Assembly (NCBI GenBank): GCA_021786355.1
Contig: JAJYNK010000011.1
Coordinates: forward strand, 1 to 52,322
Length of the DNA stretch: 52,322 nt
Reading direction: 5' to 3'
Origin: a bacterium
GTDB taxonomy: Bacteria; Patescibacteriota; Minisyncoccia; UBA6257; UBA9933
The position numbers and the translations under genes were made by a program. Below are positions 2,952-47,277 of the stretch, in pieces. The stretch's first letter is position 1, and each line of letters begins with the position of its first letter. Under the pieces are notes generated by a model, which did not search any database, was not told the DNA's origin, and saw only the letters and a list, made by a program, of their open reading frames with translations.

Positions 2952-3635
2952 ATGTGGATTCAAAGTTTGACCGAAGCGACTGTGAGATCGCTCAGAACTT
3001 CTTGGGGCCAGGTCTACAATTTTGTGCCGGCTTTCATCGGCGCGATTGTGATATTGGTAATCGGTTTGATCGTCGCGGCTGTTTTGGGTTCTTTGGTTGA
3101 AAGGCTTTTTAGATCCATCAAACTCGACGAATTGCTTAGAAAACTCGGCTTTGCGACTTATGTGGAAAGAGCCGGTCTTCGAATGGATTCCGGAAAGTTC
3201 TTCGGCGCGATTGTTTATTGGTTCTTTATAATTGTTATTGTTTTGGCGGTTTCCAATATTTTGGGGCTTGAGGTGTTTTCAGCCTTCTTGACCCAGGTTC
3301 TTTTGTATTTGCCTAATATTTTTGTCGCCGCTTTGATTATGTTGGCCACTTTAGCCGTAGCCAAGTTTTTGAAGGCGGCTGTGAAGGCGTCGGCTCTTAG
3401 TGCCAGATTTCACGCGGCGAAATTTTTGGGAACCTTTGTTTGGTGGGTTGTCGCGATTTTCGGTTTTGTCACTGCTTTGTCCCAATTGGGGATAAACATT
3501 TTTATTTTCCAGGTTTTGATTTACGGTTTTGTCGCCATGCTGGCGATTGCCGGTGGCGTCGCTTTCGGCTTGGGAGGCAAAGATTACGCTTCTCACCTTG
3601 TTGATAGATTTAAGCAAGAGACAGAAGGAAGGTAA
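2952..3635 (+). CDS. polytopic membrane protein with conserved TM-helix repeats (MscS N-terminal-like)
   Basis: 227 aa with repeated hydrophobic helices. The repeat style matches the conserved TM-helix family. No MscS beta domain is present. Confidence 0.5.
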   Translation: MWIQSLTEATVRSLRTSWGQVYNFVPAFIGAIVILVIGLIVAAVLGSLVERLFRSIKLDELLRKLGFATYVERAGLRMDSGKFFGAIVYWFFIIVIVLAVSNILGLEVFSAFLTQVLLYLPNIFVAALIMLATLAVAKFLKAAVKASALSARFHAAKFLGTFVWWVVAIFGFVTALSQLGINIFIFQVLIYGFVAMLAIAGGVAFGLGGKDYASHLVDRFKQETEGR

Positions 3636-3685
3636 ATGATAAATAATAGCTGCCAGTGATTGGTCGCTGGTGGAAATAAGACAGC

Positions 3686-3716
3686 AAAAGGCGGTCGCCT
3701 AAGCGACCGCCTTTTG
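3686..3716 (+). terminator. rho-independent terminator
   Basis: AAAAGGCGGTCGC-CTAA-GCGACCGCCTTTT: a 13-bp stem, a tetraloop and a T-run, about 50 nt after the stop at 3635. Confidence 0.75.
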
Positions 3717-3743
3717 GATTGAATTTAGCTTTAGCAGTGTTAG

Positions 3744-3879
3744 ACCCCGCACCTTTAAAGGATATTGCACCTCGCTATTTTTTTATCAAACCAGAATTTA
3801 ATATTTAAAATAACTAGTTTATAATAAGGATTATGCAAAAAGGCGCATCTAAAAATACAATCCTTTAAAGGTGCGGGGT
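3744..3879. repeat. 20-bp perfect inverted repeat enclosing a 96-nt AT-rich spacer
   Basis: ACCCCGCACCTTTAAAGGAT (3744-3763) and its exact reverse complement (3860-3879). The right arm ends 26 nt before the ftsK ATG. Confidence 0.85.
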
Positions 3880-3905
3880 AAAATGATAGAATTGATTTTA
3901 GTAAA

Positions 3906-6032
3906 ATGTCCAATAAAAAAAATAAGAAGAATAAAAAAAACGCAAAATCTTTATCAAACGAGGAGGCGGAAAACGAAGCAAAACAATCAAGGCTTCATCC
4001 CGATACTAAAAAAAGCGTGTTCGCTATAGGTTTTTTGGCATTGGCGCTTATTTTAATTTTAGCGAGATTCGGAAACGCCGGTCCGGTCGGCGACTACGCG
4101 TATAATTTTTTTAACTGGCTTTTTGGCGTGGGCTATTTTCTTCTGCCGCTTATTCTTATAATAATGTCGGTTGTTTTTTTAACTTCAGAAAGGAGAAAAA
4201 TTTACGGAATTACTTTTATCGGCGCTATTATTTTTGTTTTGTCGAGCTTGGGGTTGATAGATATTTTTTATTCCGATAAAGCCGGAATTTTCGGCTGGCT
4301 AGTCGGCTCCATCGAGTCGTTGTTTGGTCGGGTTGCTTCGATAATTATTGTTGTCGCGATGATAGTCGCGTCATTTTTAGTAACTTTGAATTTGCCCATA
4401 AAAATAAGAAGAAGGCCCAAAGAATCGATTTTGGAATCAGAGGTTAGCTGGGAAGAAGAAAATAAACAGGAGAGTTCTGAAGCTAAACAGCCAGCCGAAA
4501 AAAGCGAAAACGATGTTCAAGGGGAAACAGCTGAAGAAATAGAGCCGAAAGTGGAAGTAAAAGAAAGATTCGCTTTGCCTTTTTCGCGTCCAGCTAAAAT
4601 TCAAACCAGCCGGGCGCCCGCTAATTATATTTTCCCGCCTCTGGATTTATTAAAGTCTTCTGTTGAAAAACCGACTTCCGGCGATCTTCGCGCTAACGCA
4701 AATATTATTAAAAGAACTCTGGACAGCTTCGGTATTCCGGTGGAAATGGGGGAAATAAATGTCGGTCCCAAAGTAACGCGTTACACTCTGAAACCCGCTG
4801 AAGGCGTGAAGCTTACTAGAATAACCGCCTTGTCTTCCGATTTATCCATGGCTTTAGCCGCGCACCCAATAAGAATAGAAGCGCCGATTCCGGGAAAATC
4901 ATTGGTTGGAATTGAAGTCCCTAACAAGGCCGCTTCAATTGTCCGTTTGGGGAGCTTGATGGCGTATCCGGAGTTTTCCGCAGCCGGGTCACTGGGCTTC
5001 GCGCTCGGCAGAGACGTTACCGGCGAGCCGATTTTCGCCAATATAGAAAAAATGCCTCATATGCTTGTTGCCGGATCAACCGGAAGCGGAAAAAGCGTTT
5101 CCATTCATTCGCTTTTAATATCACTTTTGTATAAAAATTCTCCCGATAATTTAAAAATGATTTTAATCGATCCCAAACGGGTCGAACTTACGGCCTACTC
5201 GGGGATTCCGCATTTGATAGCTCCTGTGGTAACCGAATCTAAAAAATCTTTGGGGGTTTTTAAATGGGCGCTTAAAGAAATGGACGGCCGCTATGAAATG
5301 CTGGAAAGCGCCGGTTCTCGCGACATTAAAAGTTATAACAAAAAAAATCCAAACAGCCCTTTGCCTTTCATTATTATAGTAATTGACGAGCTAGCCGATT
5401 TAATGAGCACGTATGGCAGAGAAGTTGAAGGCTCTATTGTCCGGTTGGCGCAAATGGCAAGAGCCACCGGTATTCATTTAGTATTAGCTACGCAGAGGCC
5501 GTCGGTAGAAGTTATTACGGGCCTTATAAAAGCCAATATTACCACTAGAGTCGCTTTGCAAGTCGCCAGCCAAGTAGATTCCAGGACGATTTTAGATAGT
5601 TCCGGCGCTGAAAAACTTTTGGGCGGCGGCGATATGCTTTATATATCCAGCGATCTTTCCAAGCCAAGAAGAATTCAGGGCGCGTATGTGTCCGAAGAAG
5701 AAATAAATAAAGTTACCCAATTTATAAGAGAAAATAACGGCGGTTACGATCATGAAGACGCGCCCACTTTTGAAAACGGCGCTTCATCGAATGCGATGAC
5801 GTCCGAAAGTTTATTTGATGGATTTGAAAATGACAACGACGACGAATTGCTTGAAGAAGCGATAGCCGTTATAACGGAAGCTCAAAAAGCGTCGGCATCT
5901 TTACTTCAAAGACGTTTGAAAGTGGGTTATGCTAGAGCTGCCCGGCTTCTGGATATAATGGAAGCCAAAAGTATTATTGGCCCTGGCGACGGGGCAAAAC
6001 CCCGCGAGGTTTACGTAAAAAGAGAAATTTAA
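3906..6032 (+). CDS. ftsK: DNA translocase FtsK/SpoIIIE
   Basis: N-terminal TM helices, a linker, a Walker A motif (GSTGSGKS), a Walker B motif (IIVIDELADL) and a C-terminal gamma wHTH (LLQRRLKVGYARAARLLD). Confidence 0.95.
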   Translation: MSNKKNKKNKKNAKSLSNEEAENEAKQSRLHPDTKKSVFAIGFLALALILILARFGNAGPVGDYAYNFFNWLFGVGYFLLPLILIIMSVVFLTSERRKIYGITFIGAIIFVLSSLGLIDIFYSDKAGIFGWLVGSIESLFGRVASIIIVVAMIVASFLVTLNLPIKIRRRPKESILESEVSWEEENKQESSEAKQPAEKSENDVQGETAEEIEPKVEVKERFALPFSRPAKIQTSRAPANYIFPPLDLLKSSVEKPTSGDLRANANIIKRTLDSFGIPVEMGEINVGPKVTRYTLKPAEGVKLTRITALSSDLSMALAAHPIRIEAPIPGKSLVGIEVPNKAASIVRLGSLMAYPEFSAAGSLGFALGRDVTGEPIFANIEKMPHMLVAGSTGSGKSVSIHSLLISLLYKNSPDNLKMILIDPKRVELTAYSGIPHLIAPVVTESKKSLGVFKWALKEMDGRYEMLESAGSRDIKSYNKKNPNSPLPFIIIVIDELADLMSTYGREVEGSIVRLAQMARATGIHLVLATQRPSVEVITGLIKANITTRVALQVASQVDSRTILDSSGAEKLLGGGDMLYISSDLSKPRRIQGAYVSEEEINKVTQFIRENNGGYDHEDAPTFENGASSNAMTSESLFDGFENDNDDELLEEAIAVITEAQKASASLLQRRLKVGYARAARLLDIMEAKSIIGPGDGAKPREVYVKREI

Positions 6033-6765: not shown

Positions 6766-7779
6766 ATGGCGCAAAAAAAAGAAGACAAAAAAACCACTGG
6801 CGGATCAAAAGACATAGACGAGCTTTTAGAATCGCTTCAAGGTAAATTTGGCGAAGGAGCGATAATGAAGCTTGGCGACGCAAAAAAAATAAATGTTTCG
6901 GTTGTGCCGACCGGTTCATTTTCGCTTGATTTGGCTTTAGGGGTTGGCGGTTTTCCCAGAGGAAGAATTGTCGAGATTTTCGGGCCGGAATCATCCGGTA
7001 AAACCACTCTTGCTTTGCACGCGGTCGCCGAAGCGCAAAAAAAAGGAGGCAGGGCGGCTTTTATCGACGCCGAGCACGCGATGGATCCTGATTACGCCAA
7101 GCGTTTGGGGGTAAAAATAAACGATCTTTTGATATCCCAGCCAGACAGCGGAGAAGAGGCGCTTAATATTTTGGAAAATCTGGTGCGTTCGGGAATTATA
7201 GATATTATTGTTATTGACTCGGTTGCGGCGCTCACACCCAAAGCGGAGATAGAAGGAGAAATGGAACAGCAGTCGATAGGCCTTCAAGCGCGGCTAATGT
7301 CCAAAGCGCTTAGAAAAGTTACGGCCTTGGCGCACAACACCAATACCTTGATAATTTTTATAAACCAGCTTCGGGAAAAAATCGGAATAATGTTTGGTAA
7401 TCCCGAAACAACTCCAGGCGGACGGGCTTTAAAATTTTATTCTTCGGTTAGAGTCGACGTTAGGCGAACGGCGCAAATAAAAAAAGGCGACGAGGCTGTG
7501 GGTAATCGCGTTACTGCTAAAGTGGTAAAAAATAAAGTTGCCGCGCCTTTTAGAATGGCGGAATTCGATATTTTATTCGGCCAGGGGATTTCTTATGAAG
7601 GCGATGTTTTAACAGCCGCTATTAAATACGGTTCAGTTGCTAAAACCGGAAATACTTATATATTCGACGGAGAAAAGTTGGGCGTCGGATTTGACGCCTC
7701 CCGCGAAAAACTCAAAGAAGACAAAAAACTCGTGGAAGAAATAAAAAAGAAAACCCTGGCGGTAATCTCTGGAAAATGA
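6766..7779 (+). CDS. recA: recombinase RecA
   Basis: Canonical RecA sequence ([30 protein letters not shown]). Confidence 0.98.
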
Positions 7780-7830
7780 TGATTTGTTGATAAAATTAAA
7801 AAATTATTTTTGCGCTAATATAATTTTCTC

Positions 7831-7862
7831 CTCGTTTATCCCACGATCGTTGGATAAACGAG
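7831..7862. promoter_or_regulatory. 32-bp palindrome with ACGATCGT core, upstream flank of cassette A
   Basis: CTCGTTTATCC-c-ACGATCGT-t-GGATAAACGAG, 30/32 symmetric. It lies just downstream of a TATAAT at 7819-7824 and 24 nt before the ATG at 7886. Confidence 0.7.
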
Positions 7863-7885
7863 TAAAAGAAAATTAAATAAAAAAC

Positions 7886-8461
7886 ATGAAAAAAGGAGAA
7901 ATTACCTTAAAAGCTCTCGAAGCCATAGGAGATACCGCAATAAATTTTTTTGACCTTATGGTTGTAATTATGGGCTCAAGGTACGGCGCCTCGTATGGCG
8001 AACTGGATTTTGAATTTAGAAAAAGACAATTCGAAAGAGAAGTAGAAGCAGGAAAACAATTAGAGAAGCAAAAATTTTACGACTTGGTTTATCGGCTTAA
8101 AAAGCAGGGATTAATACAAGAGAAAGAAAGTAAATTTAAATTAACGAAATTAGGATTTGAGAAGTTAAAATTTTTAAAAGAAAGGAAAAAAGAAAGTTTG
8201 CCAACTAATGATTTCCCTGCGGAAAAAGGAAATAATTTTTGTATCGTGATTTTTGATGTTCCTGAAGCCGAAAGAAGAAAAAGGGACTGGCTAAGAGATT
8301 CCTTGGGTCATCTCGGATTAAAAATGATTCAAAAAAGCGTTTGGATCGGCAAAGTAAAAATACCCAAACCATTTTTGAATAGTTTGTTTAAATTAAAAAT
8401 GTTGGATTACGTAGAAATTTTTGAAATTACCAAAGCCGGTAGTTTAAAGCACGTAGTCTAG
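7886..8461 (+). CDS. winged-helix + Cas2/PaaX-like ferredoxin-fold domain protein (paralog A)
   Basis: C-terminal block FCIVIFDVPEAERRKRDWLRDSLGHLGLKMIQKSVWIGK…YVEIFEITKAGSLK has the Cas2/PaaX pattern (beta1 hhhhFD[IV]PE, helix, QKSVW). The N-terminal half has wHTH-like YRLKKQGLIQEKESKFKLTKLG. Paralogs are at 36328 and 46648. Confidence 0.6.
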   Translation: MKKGEITLKALEAIGDTAINFFDLMVVIMGSRYGASYGELDFEFRKRQFEREVEAGKQLEKQKFYDLVYRLKKQGLIQEKESKFKLTKLGFEKLKFLKERKKESLPTNDFPAEKGNNFCIVIFDVPEAERRKRDWLRDSLGHLGLKMIQKSVWIGKVKIPKPFLNSLFKLKMLDYVEIFEITKAGSLKHVV

Positions 8462-8492
8462 TAGTACGAACCGTAATTTGATAGTTTCAGCT

Positions 8493-8534
8493 AAAAACTC
8501 GTTTATTCTACGATCGTAGAATAAACGAGTTTTT
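8493..8534. promoter_or_regulatory. 42-bp perfect palindrome with ACGATCGT core, downstream flank of cassette A (also terminator-like)
   Basis: AAAAACTCGTTTATTCTACGA|TCGTAGAATAAACGAGTTTTT. Each half is the exact reverse complement of the other, and the A5/T5 flanks give bidirectional terminator geometry. Confidence 0.75.
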
Positions 8535-8550
8535 GAATTAAGTTATTTTT

Positions 8551-8579
8551 TTGAAAAAAGAGTTAATTAGAATTATACT
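8551..8579 (+). promoter_or_regulatory. sigma70-like promoter, probably giving a leaderless transcript for the 8586 gene
   Basis: TTGAAA (8551-8556), a 17-nt spacer, TATACT (8574-8579), then 6 nt to the ATG at 8586. Confidence 0.45.
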
Positions 8580-8585
8580 ACTCCT

Positions 8586-9914
8586 ATGAAATTCATTGCC
8601 GACTTTCATATTCACTCCAAATACTCCCGAGCCACCAGCAAAGATATGGTTTTGGAAGAGCTTGACCGCTGGGCGGATGACAAAGGAATTTTAGTAATGG
8701 GAACCGGTGACTTTACACATCCTGTCTGGTTTAACGAAATTAAAACCAAACTCGATCCCGCCGAGGCGGGGCTCTATAAATTAAAAAAAGAACTGAAACT
8801 TCCCACCATAAAAGAAACTTTCAGCGATACGCGTTTTATTTTAACCGCGGAAATTTCCGGAATTTACAGCCGCGGGGGGAAAACAAGAAGAATACATAAT
8901 ATACTTTTTTCTCCAAGTATCGAGGTTGTAGAGAAAATTAACAGCGCGCTTGGAGCGATCGGAAATTTAAAATCCGACGGCCGGCCGATTTTGGGCCTGG
9001 ATAGCGAAAAGCTGGCGGAAATTGTTTTTAATATAGACGAAAATATCGTTATTATTCCGGCTCACGCTTGGACTCCGTGGTTTTCAATTTTCGGTTCGAT
9101 GTCAGGGTTTGATTCCATCGAAGAATGCTTCGGTAAATACGCAGATAAAATTTTTGCCATAGAAACCGGGCTTTCAAGCGACCCGGCGATGAATTGGCGG
9201 TTGTCTAAGCTAGACAAAATTGCTTTGATTTCTAATTCCGATTCGCACTCTTTGCAGAAAATTGGCAGAGAGGCGAATATATTGGATACGGAACTTTCTT
9301 ACGAGGGGGTTGTAAAGGCGATTAAAAATGGAGCTCCCGCTAACCGGAAACAAACATCCGATAATAAACAACAAAATTTTGTTGCCACGTTGGAATTTTT
9401 TCCCGAAGAAGGAAAATACCACTATGACGGCCACCGTGTTTGCGGAGTCGTTTTTTCTCCGGACGAAACAAAAAAACACAACGGAATTTGTCCGGTATGC
9501 AAACGGCCGCTTACGGTGGGGGTTGTTTATAGAGTTGATCAACTTGCGGACGCGAAACCGGAAGTTATAAATGAAGGCAATTACCATTATTTTGACAATC
9601 GCGTTCCTTATTATAATCTCGTGTCTTTGGATGAGATTATCAGCGAGGCTTTTGGCGTGGGAACGGCTTCCAAAAAAGTTAAAGAAGCCTACTTGGATTT
9701 GATAAAAAAATTCGGCTCGGAATTGAAAATTCTTTTGGAAACGAGCGTTGAGGAATTAAAAAAATCTATCGACCCAATGATTGTCGAAGGCATTAAACGG
9801 GCGCGTGAAGGAAAAATTAAAATCCGGCCCGGCTATGACGGTGAGTACGGCGAAGTAAAAATATTTAATGACGGCGAAAGAGAAAAAATGAAAACCCAGC
9901 AGGCATTGTTTTAA
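8586..9914 (+). CDS. PHP-domain endonuclease Q-like protein
   Basis: An N-terminal PHP motif (FIADFHIHSKYSRATS), further His/Asp motifs (PAHAWTPWF, SNSDSHS) and a Cys cluster (CGVVFSP…CPVCKRPLTVGV), as in the EndoQ family. Confidence 0.7.
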   Translation: MKFIADFHIHSKYSRATSKDMVLEELDRWADDKGILVMGTGDFTHPVWFNEIKTKLDPAEAGLYKLKKELKLPTIKETFSDTRFILTAEISGIYSRGGKTRRIHNILFSPSIEVVEKINSALGAIGNLKSDGRPILGLDSEKLAEIVFNIDENIVIIPAHAWTPWFSIFGSMSGFDSIEECFGKYADKIFAIETGLSSDPAMNWRLSKLDKIALISNSDSHSLQKIGREANILDTELSYEGVVKAIKNGAPANRKQTSDNKQQNFVATLEFFPEEGKYHYDGHRVCGVVFSPDETKKHNGICPVCKRPLTVGVVYRVDQLADAKPEVINEGNYHYFDNRVPYYNLVSLDEIISEAFGVGTASKKVKEAYLDLIKKFGSELKILLETSVEELKKSIDPMIVEGIKRAREGKIKIRPGYDGEYGEVKIFNDGEREKMKTQQALF

Positions 9915-14020: not shown

Positions 14021-16630
14021 ATGTTCAAAAAACTTCAAAAAAGAAATGGACAAGTCGTGCCTTTCAAGGCGGAAAAAATCATAAACGCCATTTATAAGGC
14101 GTCTTTGGCGGTCGGTGAAGCGAATTGGCAAACAGCGGAGGTTTTAGCGAAAGAAGTTGTTAATAAATTAACAAAAAAAATCAAAAAAAATTCTCTGCCG
14201 ACCGTTGAAGAAGTCCAAGACACCGTCGAGCAGGTTTTAATCGAAACCGCCCACGCGAAAATCGCCAAAGCCTATATATTGTATCGTCAACACCGCGCCG
14301 AAATCCGTTTAGAAAAGCAACAGGTTTTAAACAAAAGCGAAATAGACGAAGTTGATAAAAAATTCGACCTTAATGCTCTAAGAGTTTTAGCCAGCAGATA
14401 TTTAAGAAAAAACGAAGACGGTTCTATTTTTGAAATTCCAAAGCAACTTTTTCAAAGAGTCGCGGTTCATACGACCATTCCCTCTCTTTTTTACGACGTC
14501 AAAGTTTATCAAAAACGGGGCGGCGCATCCGAGCACCGTTTGGAAGAATTTGATTTTATAAAAAATGAAGATAAATATTCCATCGGCAAATACAAGCTTA
14601 ACCGTTTTCATCTCGACGGTTTGTACAGAATGTACAAAAGATTTGACAGGGACAGAAAGATAACAATTTCTTGGCAAGGATTTTTGGATTTATTCAAAAA
14701 AGGATATTTCGATAAATACGAAGAGGAAATCGAAAAGTACTACAACTTGATGGTGAACCGCCGATTTTTGCCGAACACTCCGGCAATCGCCAACTTCGGA
14801 AATATTTTAGGCCAAGGTTCGGCCTGTTTTACTTTGGGAGTGGAGGATTCCATCGACAAAATAATGGATTCTTTGAAAGCGGCGGCGATTATTTTTAAAT
14901 CAGGCGGCGGCTGCGGATATAATTTTTCTAAACTTAGGCCGGAAGGAGATTTCGTCAAGAGTTCGGGAGGCACCGCCTCGGGGCCGATGAGCTTTATGTC
15001 GATGTTCGACAATATGACCGACGTCATAAAACAAGGGGGTATCAGGCGAGGCGCCAATATGGGTATTTTGAATTCAGATCATCCCGATATCGAAAAATTC
15101 GTCCACGCCAAAGAAGGCAACAAGGCTCTTAAAAATTTCAACATCTCGGTGATGTTAAAAGGGGAATTTTGGAAGTGTTTGGAAGAAAAAAAGCCTTATC
15201 CCTTGGTTAATCCCAGAAGCGGAAAAGTGGTGGCGGAAATTGAACCACAGGGTCTTTTAGACGCGATCGCTTATCAGGCTTGGGAATCGGCAGAGCCCGG
15301 AGTTTTGTTCCACGACCGCATCAATGAATATAATCCGTATCTAAAAGGAATTGGGCCTATTGAGGCCACTAACCCGTGCGGGGAGGTTATTCTTTATCCA
15401 AACGAAAGCTGTAATTTGGGTTCTTTAAATGTTTGGAGTTATTTCAAAAGAAACGGCGGGAAAAAACCCTATTTTGATTGGCAAGCTTTTGAGGCCGATA
15501 TAAAAATCGCCACCCGTTTTCTTGACAACGTGGTTGACATTAATAAATATCCCTTGCCTGAAATTGAAGAAATGACTTTAGACACCAGAAAATTGGGATT
15601 GGGACTTATGGGGCTGGGAGATCTTTTGTATGAATTGGAAATTCCTTACGATTCCAAAGAGGGAATTTCTTTTATGGAAAAAATAATGGAATTTATAAAT
15701 TACCATTCCAAAGTCGCTTCGGTCCAATTAGCCAAAGAGCGCGGCAGAATGCCTTCGTTTGACAAATCTTTTTATAAAGAAGGCAAACTTCCATTTTCGG
15801 CATTTAAAGACAAAGACTCTTGGAGTTTCGATTGGAAAGCCCTTGCTTCAAAAATAAAAAAGGACGGGATTAGAAACGGCTTTACGACCGTCATAGCGCC
15901 GACCGGTTCTATTTCAATGATTGCCGGATGTTCTTCGGGGATCGAACCGGTTTTTAGTTTGGTTTTTGAAAAAAACGTGGCCATCGGAAGTTTTTATTAC
16001 ATAGATCCGGTTTTTGAAGAAAGAATGCAAAAAGAAGGTTTGATGGATGAAGCTCTTATAAAAGACGTGGCAGCCATGACCGGCAGCGTCAAAAATATAA
16101 ATTATATTACGCCGAAGCTTAAAAAAATATTCGTTACCGCTATGGATATTTCTCCCAGAGATCACGTTAAAGTTTTGGCGGCTTTCCAAAAATGGACCGA
16201 TTCTTCAATTTCTAAAACGACAAATCTTCCCGCCGAAGCCACCTTTGAAGACATCAAAGATATTTATATTTTCGCGCATGATTTAGGCTGTAAGGGAGTG
16301 ACTGTTTATCGCGACAAATCTCTAAAGACTCAAGTGCTGACCGGCACCATTAAAAAATACGAAAAGAAGCATGACAAAAAAGAAACAAAAGACAGCGAAC
16401 TTGTCGCGATAAAAGACGAAAAAGCCAAAGGCTTGGCGGTTTATCACAAAGCCGGAACAATTTTAGGTATGTCCAGTTTGGGGCTTTCTCCGGCGCCCGA
16501 TAACGGCAATAATGATTCTTCTTCGAATTCGAACAACCAGCTTAAAAATTGTCCGTCTTGCAAAACTCCTTTGGCAAGGCAAGAGGGGTGTTTAAAATGT
16601 CCGAGCTGCGGTTGGGGATTGTGCGCTTAA
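14021..16630 (+). CDS. nrdJ: class II (adenosylcobalamin-dependent) ribonucleotide reductase with N-terminal ATP-cone
   Basis: An ATP-cone (KRNGQVVPFKAEKIINAI), an active-site region (NPCGEVILYPNESCNLGS) and a C-terminal CxxC…CxxC tail. The ATG at 14021 is preferred over the TTG at 13991. Confidence 0.88.
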   Translation: MFKKLQKRNGQVVPFKAEKIINAIYKASLAVGEANWQTAEVLAKEVVNKLTKKIKKNSLPTVEEVQDTVEQVLIETAHAKIAKAYILYRQHRAEIRLEKQQVLNKSEIDEVDKKFDLNALRVLASRYLRKNEDGSIFEIPKQLFQRVAVHTTIPSLFYDVKVYQKRGGASEHRLEEFDFIKNEDKYSIGKYKLNRFHLDGLYRMYKRFDRDRKITISWQGFLDLFKKGYFDKYEEEIEKYYNLMVNRRFLPNTPAIANFGNILGQGSACFTLGVEDSIDKIMDSLKAAAIIFKSGGGCGYNFSKLRPEGDFVKSSGGTASGPMSFMSMFDNMTDVIKQGGIRRGANMGILNSDHPDIEKFVHAKEGNKALKNFNISVMLKGEFWKCLEEKKPYPLVNPRSGKVVAEIEPQGLLDAIAYQAWESAEPGVLFHDRINEYNPYLKGIGPIEATNPCGEVILYPNESCNLGSLNVWSYFKRNGGKKPYFDWQAFEADIKIATRFLDNVVDINKYPLPEIEEMTLDTRKLGLGLMGLGDLLYELEIPYDSKEGISFMEKIMEFINYHSKVASVQLAKERGRMPSFDKSFYKEGKLPFSAFKDKDSWSFDWKALASKIKKDGIRNGFTTVIAPTGSISMIAGCSSGIEPVFSLVFEKNVAIGSFYYIDPVFEERMQKEGLMDEALIKDVAAMTGSVKNINYITPKLKKIFVTAMDISPRDHVKVLAAFQKWTDSSISKTTNLPAEATFEDIKDIYIFAHDLGCKGVTVYRDKSLKTQVLTGTIKKYEKKHDKKETKDSELVAIKDEKAKGLAVYHKAGTILGMSSLGLSPAPDNGNNDSSSNSNNQLKNCPSCKTPLARQEGCLKCPSCGWGLCA

Positions 16631-36279: not shown

Positions 36280-36317
36280 CTATCGGACTATTTGACGATC
36301 GTAAATTAGTACGATAG
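36280..36317. promoter_or_regulatory. 38-bp imperfect palindrome with ACGATCGT core, upstream flank of cassette B
   Basis: CTATCGGACTATTTG-ACGATCGT-AAATTAGTACGATAG. The arms are 12/15 complementary. It ends 10 nt before the ATG at 36328. Confidence 0.65.
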
Positions 36318-36327
36318 CATTAAGTAA

Positions 36328-36897
36328 ATGCGAGGAGAAAAACGGTTAAAAATTTTGGAATTTCTTTCAGAATCAACCCGCACAGCAGGAGATTTATTTT
36401 CTATTTTTACAATGCCGTACGGAACATCACTTTATAGGGGATTGAAAACAGCGGAAAGATATCATCAAGAACGAGAAAATAGAGAGATAGAAAGGAGAGA
36501 ACGGCTAAATTTCAACGATCTAATTTATAGATTAAGAAAAGACGATCTCGTAGAAGAATTTGGGGAAAAAAGAAAAAAATTTTTTCGCCTAACAGATAAG
36601 GGAAAAAATAGTTTGGCAAAGCTTGAGTTAAGAATATTAACTGATAATTACGAGATAAAAAGGGATAATTTAGTGAAAATTGTAGTTTTCGACATACCAG
36701 AGAAAAAAAGGAAAATGCGCGATTGGATCAGAAGAATATTAGTAAATTTGGAATTTAATATGCTCCAAAAAAGTGTTTGGATCGGCAAAACAAAAATTCC
36801 GGAAGAATTTATTAAACAACTTAGGAATCTAAACCTCTTGTCTTATGTGGAAATATTTGAGATAAGTAAAACTGGAAGTTTAAAGCAAATAAAATAA
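36328..36897 (+). CDS. winged-helix + Cas2/PaaX-like ferredoxin-fold domain protein (paralog B)
   Basis: VKIVVFDIPEKKRKMRDWIRRILVNLEFNMLQKSVWIGKTKIPEEFI…YVEIFEISKTGSLKQIK. Clear paralog of 7886-8461 and 46648-47232. Confidence 0.6.
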   Translation: MRGEKRLKILEFLSESTRTAGDLFSIFTMPYGTSLYRGLKTAERYHQERENREIERRERLNFNDLIYRLRKDDLVEEFGEKRKKFFRLTDKGKNSLAKLELRILTDNYEIKRDNLVKIVVFDIPEKKRKMRDWIRRILVNLEFNMLQKSVWIGKTKIPEEFIKQLRNLNLLSYVEIFEISKTGSLKQIK

Positions 36898-36904
36898 TTT
36901 TTAG

Positions 36905-36944
36905 CCTATCGGATTAATTCACGATCGTTAATTAATCAGATAGG
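36905..36944. promoter_or_regulatory. 40-bp imperfect palindrome with ACGATCGT core, downstream flank of cassette B
   Basis: CCTATCGGATTAATTC-ACGATCGT-TAATTAATCAGATAGG. The arms are 14/16 complementary and share CTATCGGA with the upstream flank. Confidence 0.65.
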
Positions 36945-46586: not shown

Positions 46587-46630
46587 CAAAACATCGTATA
46601 TGTGACGACCGTCACATATACGATGTTTTG
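46587..46630. promoter_or_regulatory. 44-bp near-perfect palindrome (core ACGACCGT), downstream flank of cassette C
   Basis: CAAAACATCGTATATGTGAC-GACC-GTCACATATACGATGTTTTG, with 20-nt perfectly complementary arms. It lies about 40 nt upstream of the protease gene start. Confidence 0.7.
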
Positions 46631-46647: not shown

Positions 46648-47232
46648 TCATGTCTTTAATTGTTTTAAACTGCCAGTTTTGCTTATTTCAAATATTTCAA
46701 CATACGGTAGAAGATCAAAATTTTTTAGATTGTGTATCAATTCTTCGGGAAGCTTTGTTTTTCCAATCCAAACACTTTTCTGCAACATTTTAAATTTCAA
46801 ATTTCTGAGAACCTCTCTTATCCACCCTCTTTTCTTCCTGTGCTTTTCTGGAATGTCAAATATTATAATTTTAAATGTATTTTCGTTTTCTATTTTATAT
46901 ACTTTTTGAGGAAACTCATTTGTTTTTCTTAAACGAAGATTTTCCAATTTCTCCGCGCCTTTTTTGGTTATTTGCAATGATTTTTTATTTTCTTTATTAA
47001 TATTTTCGATTAACCCCTCTTTTCTTAGGCGATATAATAGATCGTAAAAACGCAATTTTTCTTCGCGATCTATTTGTCGGCCTTCTCTTTCTCTTTGGCG
47101 GCGCGCTAAAAGTTTTAATCCTTTATTTAATGAAGTTCCATAGGGTAAGCTAAAAATAAAAAACACATTGCCTATGGTTTGAGCTGATTGTTCGAGGGTT
47201 TCTAATATTTTTAATCCATACTCTCCTTTCAT
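46648..47232 (-). CDS. winged-helix + Cas2/PaaX-like ferredoxin-fold domain protein (paralog C)
   Basis: FKIIIFDIPEKHRKKRGWIREVLRNLKFKMLQKSVWIGKTKLPEELI…YVEIFEISKTGSLKQLKT. The start at the ATG at 47232 is preferred, because the longer ORF runs through the upstream palindrome. Confidence 0.6.
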   Translation of the reverse strand: MKGEYGLKILETLEQSAQTIGNVFFIFSLPYGTSLNKGLKLLARRQREREGRQIDREEKLRFYDLLYRLRKEGLIENINKENKKSLQITKKGAEKLENLRLRKTNEFPQKVYKIENENTFKIIIFDIPEKHRKKRGWIREVLRNLKFKMLQKSVWIGKTKLPEELIHNLKNFDLLPYVEIFEISKTGSLKQLKT

Positions 47233-47245
47233 AATTATTATTTTA

Positions 47246-47277
47246 ATCGTATATCTGACGATCGTCAAATATACGAT
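47246..47277. promoter_or_regulatory. 32-bp palindrome with ACGATCGT core, upstream flank of cassette C
   Basis: ATCGTATATCTG-ACGATCGT-CAAATATACGAT. The arms are 11/12 complementary. It lies 14 nt from the ATG at 47232. Confidence 0.7.

Follow-up and report, generated by a model that had tools for sequence, protein, structure and literature searches.

The contig JAJYNK010000011.1 (assembly GCA_021786355.1), from a Wolfebacteria-like bacterium of the Candidate Phyla Radiation (CPR, Patescibacteriota), was analyzed over its positions 1 to 52,322, and this 52,322-bp stretch is called the window below. It carries three copies of a cassette, A, B and C, in which one small gene stands between two palindromes. 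The gene product is predicted to join a winged helix to a Cas2-fold domain like that of the repressor PaaX. In the reading we favor, to which we give a probability of about 45%, protein and palindromes form a partnership of the kind known from repetitive extragenic palindromes (REP), or REPINs, and their RAYT proteins: an autoregulated dimeric protein would act on its own palindromes, with one single-copy protein, unrelated to the HUH transposases, for each palindrome class. CPR bacteria have tiny genomes, few recognizable regulators and almost no experimental genetics.

Each cassette measures about 730-760 bp, with a gene of about 190 aa between two palindromes of 32-44 bp. The preliminary description of the window had taken the three genes for paralogs with a shared C-terminal block, and this was borne out, with pairwise identities of 40-44%. 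Its account of the palindromes was verified for all six of them: every gene is bracketed, and the arms are alike on both flanks of one locus and unlike across the three loci. The features of the cassettes are the following.

7796-7824, plus strand: promoter-like site of gene A, TTAAAA-N17-TATAAT, a putative promoter by its consensus match alone (10/12)
7826-7867: upstream palindrome A, core ACGATCGT at 7843-7850, boxes CTCGTTTAT and ATAAACGAG; putative autoregulatory operator
7886-8461, plus strand: gene A, 191 aa; predicted winged helix at about aa 1-102, Cas2-fold (PaaX_M) domain at aa 113-189
8493-8534: downstream palindrome A, core at 8510-8517, boxes identical to those of the upstream copy
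7811-8541, plus strand: approximate extent of cassette A, edges set by manual comparison of flanks to about ±10 bp
36280-36317: upstream palindrome B, box CTATCG(G/T)ACTA, core at 36295-36302
36328-36897, plus strand: gene B, 189-aa paralog, between nifU_N and a 72-aa NifU-like gene
36906-36944: downstream palindrome B, core at 36921-36928
46587-46630: downstream palindrome C, box CATCGTATAT, core ACGACCGT; single-stranded DNA hairpin of -19.9 kcal/mol (z -10.5)
46648-47232, minus strand: gene C, 194-aa paralog, between the DUF6390 gene and a HycI-like gene
47246-47277: upstream palindrome C, core at 47258-47265

The octamer ACGATCGT occurs five times in the 52,322 bp, compared with 0.54 expected from shuffles, and none of 100 shuffles reached five. 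All five copies are palindrome centers beside genes A, B and C and, as had been claimed, the octamer is found nowhere else in the window; the sixth center, at 46605, is ACGACCGT. The six palindromes rank among the ten longest short-range inverted repeats of the window. No additional arm-plus-core copy of class A, B or C was found within it. The hexamer CGATCG itself is not rare (12 observed, 13.4 expected); the special feature is the octamer in its palindromic setting only. Restriction avoidance of the core was rejected, since CGATCG is not depleted in the window. As a separate observation, GATC, which forms the loop and center of the palindromes, is scarcer than expected in the whole window (109 vs 153 ± 12), which could reflect a GATC-specific restriction or methylation system.

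Computed folding showed that the palindromes form stable hairpins with a GATC loop as single-stranded DNA. The upstream copy of cassette A has arms of 21 nt that are 86% complementary (-10 kcal/mol, z -5.4), while the downstream copy is a perfect 42-mer with A5/T5 tails (-17.3 kcal/mol, z -7.9). Hairpin or cruciform forms of the palindromes are possible.

The proteins were compared with Pfam and TIGRFAM models. Pfam PaaX_M (PF20803, 'PaaX central Cas2-like domain') matched all three paralogs above the gathering cut-off, with scores of 50-56 bits against a cut-off of 24 and E values from 3e-13 to 5e-15. The Pfam Cas2 models gave marginal matches, the N-terminal halves gave weak matches to PadR and other winged helix-turn-helix models, and no match to Y1_Tnp was found in paralogs A, B or C. 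The three scores with the Cas2 model TIGR01573 were 27.7, 23.6 and 22.8 bits (cut-off 24.5), and the match spanned only positions 2-43 of 96. The PaaX equivalog model TIGR02277 aligned collinearly, aa 66-178 to positions 41-150 of 279, at 29 bits against a cut-off of 264.55. Sequence-only search of the PDB and hhalign against E. coli PaaX returned weak alignments of the winged-helix part alone, and a comparison of folds was needed.

An AlphaFold model of protein A was built with 49 homologs (mean predicted local distance difference test score 78). It predicts a winged helix formed by helices 4-14, 21-30 and 52-73, a wing at 77-86 and a helix at 88-102, followed by a beta-alpha-beta-beta-alpha-beta(-beta) domain at 113-189; residues 31-52 form a loop of low confidence. 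The top Foldseek match was E. coli PaaX (8A39), followed by many Cas2 structures and, after these, by Rv0674 and PadR. The Cas2 matches had root mean square deviations of 3-4 Å, with 27-28% identity to 3EXC and 6JHZ, and D124 of protein A aligned with the Cas2 beta1 Asp (the Asp of YDV in SSO8090, 3EXC). As judged from the sequence and the model, the protein is a 'mini-PaaX', in which an N-terminal winged helix precedes a C-terminal Cas2-fold domain, in agreement with the fold first proposed for it; it ends past the Cas2-fold domain and so lacks the C-terminal effector domain of PaaX.

Neither the Cas2 beta1 Asp nor the QxSVW motif varies across the family. In a manual alignment, IVIFDVPE and QKSVWIG of the family stand opposite LLLLSEG and APSLMAS of E. 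coli PaaX; the motif is replaced in PaaX and kept in the family, and therefore the family retains Cas2 motifs that PaaX lost. It thereby forms a link between the Cas2 branch and the PaaX branch of the fold and, in the bolder, unlikely reading given below, could be a living intermediate between the two, with a bearing on the work of Cas2 beside palindromic repeats. No His or Cys was found among the invariant or nearly invariant (≥90%) columns of the family alignment, and an HUH or IS200-type enzyme was rejected since there is no His in these columns. Inside the variable loop 31-52 (DNA 7976-8041), between helix 2 and the long recognition helix, the motif G-Y-G-A-S-Y (Y33, G34, S36) is nearly invariant; its Tyr or Ser could be a catalytic or DNA-inserting residue.

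The family comprises 691 clusters (50% identity, E ≤ 1e-30), and nearly all matches from named organisms are from CPR lineages. Large as it is, the family goes under the labels 'Cas2' or 'hypothetical': NCBI names many members 'CRISPR-associated endonuclease Cas2', and at JGI they appear as PadR or PaaX regulators. The name Cas2 should be regarded as a misannotation resting on the partial, borderline TIGR01573 match; it misleads CRISPR surveys of CPR bacteria and should be corrected. No CRISPR-like array was found in the window, no Cas1 Pfam match in any neighborhood with Pfam tables, and no other cas gene in those neighborhoods or in the window. A CRISPR association was rejected because there is no array and no cas1 neighbor and the matches to Cas2 models are partial.

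The Cas2 motifs bear on one alternative, a toxin or defense module, in which a Cas2/VapD-like protein would be a self-repressing single-protein addiction or anti-phage system. The invariant beta1 Asp and QxSVW, partial PADLOC matches to Cas2, WH_III-A and Csa3, and a patchy distribution are in line with such a module. However, no partner gene, cas1, CRISPR array or recurrent neighbor is present, the matches end after the first 40 or so positions of the Cas2 models, and dispersed cognate palindromes are not typical of toxin systems. We regard it as the least probable of the explanations considered, and the toxin suggestion of the preliminary description found no support.

The palindromes were then examined across the family. 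A genome scan gave 57 loci in Wolfe-, Lipton-, Brenner-, Jorgensen-, Colwell-, Nomura-, Doudna- and Nealsonbacteria and other lineages. Both flanks were palindromic at 44 loci from many CPR lineages, with palindromes mostly of 32-46 bp and locus-specific arms. The center usually reads (A/G)CGATCG(T/C); CCAATTGG and GCGATAGC are among the rarer variants. In 462 kb of related loci together with the window, 51 of 62 strong palindromes lay within 200 bp of a family gene, although such zones make up only about 6% of the sequence.

Conservation over the 44 loci depended strongly on the distance from the dyad. At positions 1-3 the identity between loci was 0.83-0.95, and at positions 5-10, which are A/T-rich, conservation was intermediate. 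At positions 12-17 the identity between loci was 0.25-0.45, which is chance-like, whereas between the two flanks of one locus it was 0.82-0.97. The symmetry of the palindromes dips at positions 5-10, peaks again at 12-16 and declines past 18. The boxes of specificity are inverted 6-bp sequences, 22 bp apart, at ±12-17 from the dyad. A conserved center with flank-matched private boxes indicates a two-fold symmetric protein site with a common center and a private 6-bp box. The profile is operator-like and the site, as these alignments describe it, is bipartite, with a family-wide CGATCG core and class-specific boxes.

PaaX binds the operator TGATTC-N27-GAATCA, dimerizes via its central domain and represses its own promoter (PMC9493321). 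The homology to a proven, autoregulated repressor with similarly spaced half-sites and the operator-like profile both count for a second explanation, an ordinary family of host transcription factors. Here the proteins would be PaaX-like repressors or roadblocks and the palindromes would be operators or protein-reinforced bidirectional terminators or insulators; the upstream site would serve autorepression, the downstream and solo sites would stop read-through, and patchiness would be normal regulator turnover with no mobility of an element. We hold this to be a real possibility, less probable than a partnership of the REPIN-RAYT kind. Against it, the protein has no effector domain for sensing a signal, and protein contacts alone fail to explain full symmetry through linkers that vary from site to site. 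Many or most family palindromes are followed by A-rich runs and not T-runs, and are therefore not classical terminators.

These tails also bear on the idea of an RNA-level element, in which transcribed hairpins, a stem in the 5' untranslated region and a terminator or 3' stabilizer, would be bound or cut as RNA by the Cas2-fold protein. Some Cas2 proteins have been described as RNases, upstream palindrome A would start at about +1 of the predicted transcript, and in two downstream copies very stable stems are combined with A5/T5 tails. However, an RNA stem under selection is expected to be rich in G·U pairs. The non-Watson-Crick positions of the palindromes were G·T in 60 cases, A·C in 61 and other in 165 in the 44-locus set, and 30, 22 and 57, respectively, in a second, transcription-oriented set, so that there is no wobble excess in either orientation, which argues for a DNA rather than an RNA element. 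Symmetry has its minimum beside the supposed loop and its maximum in the outer boxes, half of the sites would be transcribed on both strands, and no Rfam family matches. An RNA hairpin or terminator was rejected on the wobble counts, the position-dependent symmetry, the A-rich tails and the lack of an Rfam match, and we consider it very improbable.

The upstream dyad typically lies 26-50 bp before the start codon. The gene-proximal arm is richer in -10-like hexamers in upstream than in downstream copies (33 vs 13), and the promoter-like site of gene A stops 2 bp ahead of upstream palindrome A. The gene downstream of the cassette is convergent at 21 of 42 loci, and for this reason the downstream palindrome was rejected as the operator of the next gene. 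The earlier suggestion of an autoregulated repressor with paired operators consequently stands in part: probable DNA binding and the upstream site are retained, on the operator-like profile and the abutting promoter-like site, and the downstream site as an operator of the next gene is not. No neighbor gene recurs family-wide over the 57 loci, and a conserved neighborhood or functional regulon was rejected since none was found.

Covariation between protein and box gave no signal without register shifts. With register shifts allowed, similarity of the boxes followed overall protein similarity (rho 0.38), with the recognition helix slightly in the lead (0.35), correlations that are inseparable from shared ancestry, and a pairwise comparison of box and protein among close paralogs was uninformative. 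In a shorter subfamily (about 160-175 aa; L047-L050, L006 and L039) many cores are asymmetric and read GCGATAGC or, in reverse complement, GCTATCGC, always by one and the same single change from GCGATCGC, and at L047 and L048 the two flanks of one gene carry opposite orientations of the core.

Solo palindromes were sought in a metagenome scan for one common class, ACTATCCTA-N5-6-CGATCG-N5-6-TAGGAT; the counts in this and the next paragraph are those among the matches listed (120 stretches). At least 129 sites were found, of which at least 29 adjoin a family gene and at least 54 are solo, with 800 bp or more of sequence to either side and without a family gene. Palindromes of this class are thus frequent without the gene, the finding that had been named beforehand as refuting the claim that the module is 'self-contained', and that claim was dropped.

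Solo sites adjoin the 3' ends of genes more than the 5' ends, and the genes around them are convergent in at least 25 cases, co-directional in at least 38 and divergent in at least 10. The adjoining genes lack a common function (ClpP, HtrA, L21, RecR, Tgt-like proteins and pilins). In different species, solo sites stand at equal positions behind clpP (56% identity), rplU (31-62%) and htrA (38%), and at these positionally conserved sites the linker differs each time. Among at least 89 unique sites there were 53 different linkers, and 44 sites were perfectly symmetric through positions 4-10. The position of the solo sites at gene 3' ends or between convergent genes, conserved behind clpP, rplU and htrA, favors the host transcription factors introduced above; however, the absence of a functional theme among the flanking genes weighs against them, as does the clustering of different classes in one spacer.

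Palindromes of another class were found 50-170 bp from some ACTATCCTA sites. Two-class pairs, both CGATCG-centered and in one spacer, occur in L085 (4391-4430/4481-4518, between convergent genes), L160 (6796-6836/6860-6898), L083 (5412/5585) and L104 (632/684), and such mixed-class clusters resemble the mosaic REP clusters (bacterial interspersed mosaic elements, BIMEs) of enterobacteria. L180 has a solo palindrome of class C, between an M50 peptidase gene and ybeY, that neither the window nor L179 carries. Directly after it, L180 6455-6655 consists of roughly 200 bp of short repeats, degenerate and rich in A/T (aaagaatataaa, aagaaat...), and these too are missing from the window and L179.

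Some family genes have a third palindrome copy one gene away. In L001, a 167-aa gene (4709-5212, minus strand; the same locus as L098 2295-2798), whose N-terminus looks LexA-like by eye alone, has palindromes of the same class at 4608-4649 and 5332-5377, and the layout is an array of palindrome, gene, palindrome, gene and palindrome. Comparable third palindromes lie past a neighboring small gene in L024 (5161-5204) and L191 (4456).

Presence or absence of the cassettes was determined in collinear close relatives, which were found through the neighboring genes.

Window: A, B and C present
GCA_024654025.1 (EndoQ 90% and POR-alpha 85% identical): A, B and C absent
GCA_900218215.1: A not covered; B and C absent
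ENA contig L183: A not covered; B absent; C present (91% identical)
JGI contig Ga0063011_10003477 (L180/L191): A absent; B present (66%); C present (83%)

Cassette A is missing between recA and the endonuclease Q gene in the collinear stretches L179 and L180, where recA is followed directly by the endonuclease Q gene, the empty site proposed as a check in the preliminary description. At the nifU_N/nifU72 junction, L191 has cassette B, whereas L184, L182 and L183 do not; cassette C is missing in L184 and L182 and present in L183 and L191. Little room is left at the empty junctions: recA and the endonuclease Q gene are separated by 33 bp, the gap behind DUF6390 measures 7 bp, and nifU_N and nifU72 overlap. 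The unit gained or lost consists of the gene, both palindromes and about 5-50 bp beyond, and the polymorphism among relatives comprises whole cassettes and one solo palindrome. In orthologous C cassettes the box is the same and the linker has changed on both arms together (ATATGTG/CACATAT vs ATACCCG/CGGGTAT). Cassettes without cargo or target gene, set inside junctions so tight that nifU_N and nifU72 overlap when empty, weigh against the host transcription factors.

No palindrome was left at the empty junctions of L179, L180, L182, L183 and L184, and therefore simple recombination between the two flanking copies is excluded; deletion by recombination between two palindromes, after the logic of Xer or integrons, was rejected on this ground. 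This bears on a further alternative, a site-specific recombination module, whose palindromes would be crossover sites of a tyrosine recombinase (Xer/pdif, integron attC) with the family protein as an accessory DNA-binding factor. The gene does lie between two sites with inverted arms around a core of 6-8 bp, and the ACTATCCTA-class gene stands directly downstream of an XerC/D-like integrase gene in many genomes. However, excision would leave one palindrome where the empty sites hold none, the boxes lie 12-17 bp from the dyad with variable bases next to the core, unlike Xer arms, and no integrase gene was found near copies A, B or C in the window. We judge such a module improbable.

The XerC/D-like tyrosine recombinase gene (302 aa) beside the ACTATCCTA-class gene is the sole recurrent neighbor of any subgroup. 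In L185 the recombinase gene occupies 3016-3924 and the family gene 4001-4600, and the same arrangement is found in L186-L190, L102 (2997-3902), L002, L004, L005, L008, L010, L012 and L014. An exact ACTATCCTA-class protein, P0005, was found in one context alone, directly after the integrase gene. This member is stably inherited, and recent transposition was rejected because of the single context. At the nifU_N/nifU72 junction, the site of cassette B in the window, L183 carries an unrelated GC-rich insert of 150 bp that contains a hairpin (16421-16571), and in two other relatives the two genes overlap; from these sequences the junction seems to be an insertion hot spot.

A partnership of the REPIN-RAYT kind would work as follows. 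The protein would bind duplex DNA as a dimer joined by its Cas2-fold domain, as PaaX does; the two winged helices would recognize the class-specific 6-bp boxes that lie ±12-17 from the dyad, and the conserved Cas2-fold dimer would lie over the family-wide CGATCG core. The upstream palindrome abuts or overlaps the likely promoter of the gene, and the protein would repress its own synthesis, as suggested because the promoter-like site abuts the upstream palindrome and -10-like hexamers are enriched upstream. Gene and palindromes would come and go together as one discrete unit, and palindromes of the same class would persist as solo copies, mostly behind gene 3' ends. The protein may either just bind the palindromes, stabilizing them or blocking transcription, or may also nick the core and aid their spread. 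The selfish cassette with REP/RAYT logic that had been suggested at first is in keeping with the clean presence/absence units and the dispersed solo palindromes of the same class; its IS200/HUH chemistry is not upheld, as the protein has no invariant or nearly invariant His.

Several findings weigh against this partnership. No identical cassettes were seen in differing contexts, and paralogs of one genome, 40-74% identical, are old. Copy numbers appear small, perhaps 5-10 sites per class per genome, and the window holds no solo copies. No known transposase chemistry can be read in a protein without invariant or nearly invariant His or Cys, and binding, cleavage and transposition alike are hypothetical. 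Solo sites are kept at one position in species with only 31-62% identity of the flanking proteins, which a host function would explain no less well than selfish spread. Ordinary gene loss or homologous allele exchange could account for the patchy cassettes, and template-switch 'palindrome perfecting', rather than selection, for the symmetric linkers. The stable synteny of the ACTATCCTA-class gene, the few sites and the lack of identical multi-copy cassettes add to the case for host transcription factors.

A bolder version of the partnership appears unlikely: that this is an unrecognized palindromic repeat system, so far of CPR/Patescibacteria only, in which a Cas2-fold protein, not an HUH, DDE, serine or tyrosine enzyme, would recognize and nick or mobilize its own palindromes, the boxes via the winged helix and the core via the Cas2-fold dimer, as an independent analogue of REPIN-RAYT.

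Comparison with known systems showed both likenesses and differences. The family shares with the phenylacetyl-CoA-responsive repressor PaaX (PDB 8A39 and 3L09; Pfam PaaX, PaaX_M and PaaX_C) a winged helix followed by a Cas2-like central (dimerization) domain, collinear with TIGR02277, and 8A39 was the best full-length structural match. Both have widely spaced, inverted 6-bp half-sites, N27 in PaaX and N22 in the family, and autorepression by promoter occlusion, reported for PaaX (PMC9493321), is suggested for the family by the anatomy of the site. In contrast to PaaX (316 aa), the family protein has about 190 aa without the C-terminal helical effector (phenylacetyl-CoA) domain, scores far under the PaaX equivalog cut-off, shows no link to paa or aromatic catabolism genes, and keeps the Cas2 Asp and QxSVW that are lost in E. 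coli PaaX. Its sites are CGATCG-centered, stand on both flanks of the gene and are dispersed at gene 3' ends.

RAYT genes are flanked by their own repeats; the class-specific gene is single-copy, and the spacer is variable while the hairpin is kept (PMC3337134, PMC3116915). The family resembles the REP/REPIN-RAYT systems of Pseudomonas and Enterobacteria in its short single-copy gene with its own palindromic repeats on the flanks, one class per paralog, in the extragenic dispersal of the repeats (shown here for the ACTATCCTA class) and in self-complementary variable spacers. Some A/T-run flanks, clustered repeats and largely vertical inheritance are further likenesses, documented on the RAYT side in the same reports (PMC3337134, PMC3116915). 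However, the family protein is a winged helix with a Cas2 fold and not an HUH/Y1 transposase, the repeat is one long palindrome with a conserved center and not a REP doublet, copy numbers are apparently tens at most and not hundreds, and gene and flanking palindromes are polymorphic among close relatives.

With Cas2, and also VapD, the family shares the ferredoxin-like fold, the beta1 Asp and Q-x-S-V-W/F. In contrast to stand-alone Cas2 of about 90-100 aa, the protein has 190 aa and is fused to a winged helix, has no cas1 or CRISPR array nearby, and matches only the first 40 or so positions of the hidden Markov models. With IS200/IS605 elements it has in common a small gene between (sub)terminal hairpin-forming palindromes, gene-less palindromic derivatives, and clean empty sites with no obvious target duplication. 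However, TnpA (HUH) and TnpB are lacking, no multi-copy identical elements were seen, and the ends are the same full palindrome twice and not distinct left and right ends. In the literature, which was covered incompletely so that this is absence of evidence only, there was no report linking PaaX with Cas2, of Cas2-like winged-helix proteins of this kind or of REP-like repeats in CPR bacteria. What appears to be new is the combination of a PaaX-like binder with a REP/RAYT-like organization.

To our knowledge, a long-lived partnership of a repeat and a single-copy gene is known only from REPIN-RAYT. If it is true that the present protein spreads or maintains the palindromes, the family would provide a second, mechanistically distinct partnership of this kind. 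The DNA partner can be read from the sequence and each paralog has a different 6-bp specificity, which makes protein-DNA recognition testable, and binding sites can be predicted in thousands of uncultivated genomes.

The neighbors of genes A, B and C are recA/endoQ, nifSU/ferredoxin and DUF6390/hydrogenase genes, respectively. Those of gene A are as follows.

6766-7779: recA, left neighbor
8586-9914: endonuclease Q family gene, right neighbor

The endonuclease Q gene has a promoter-like sequence of its own, TTGAAA-N17-TATACT (8551-8586 in the window), whose -10 hexamer stops 6 bp ahead of the ATG; a Shine-Dalgarno sequence is lacking, which suggests that the mRNA may be leaderless. The same promoter block is kept in the relative L180 (4236-4279).

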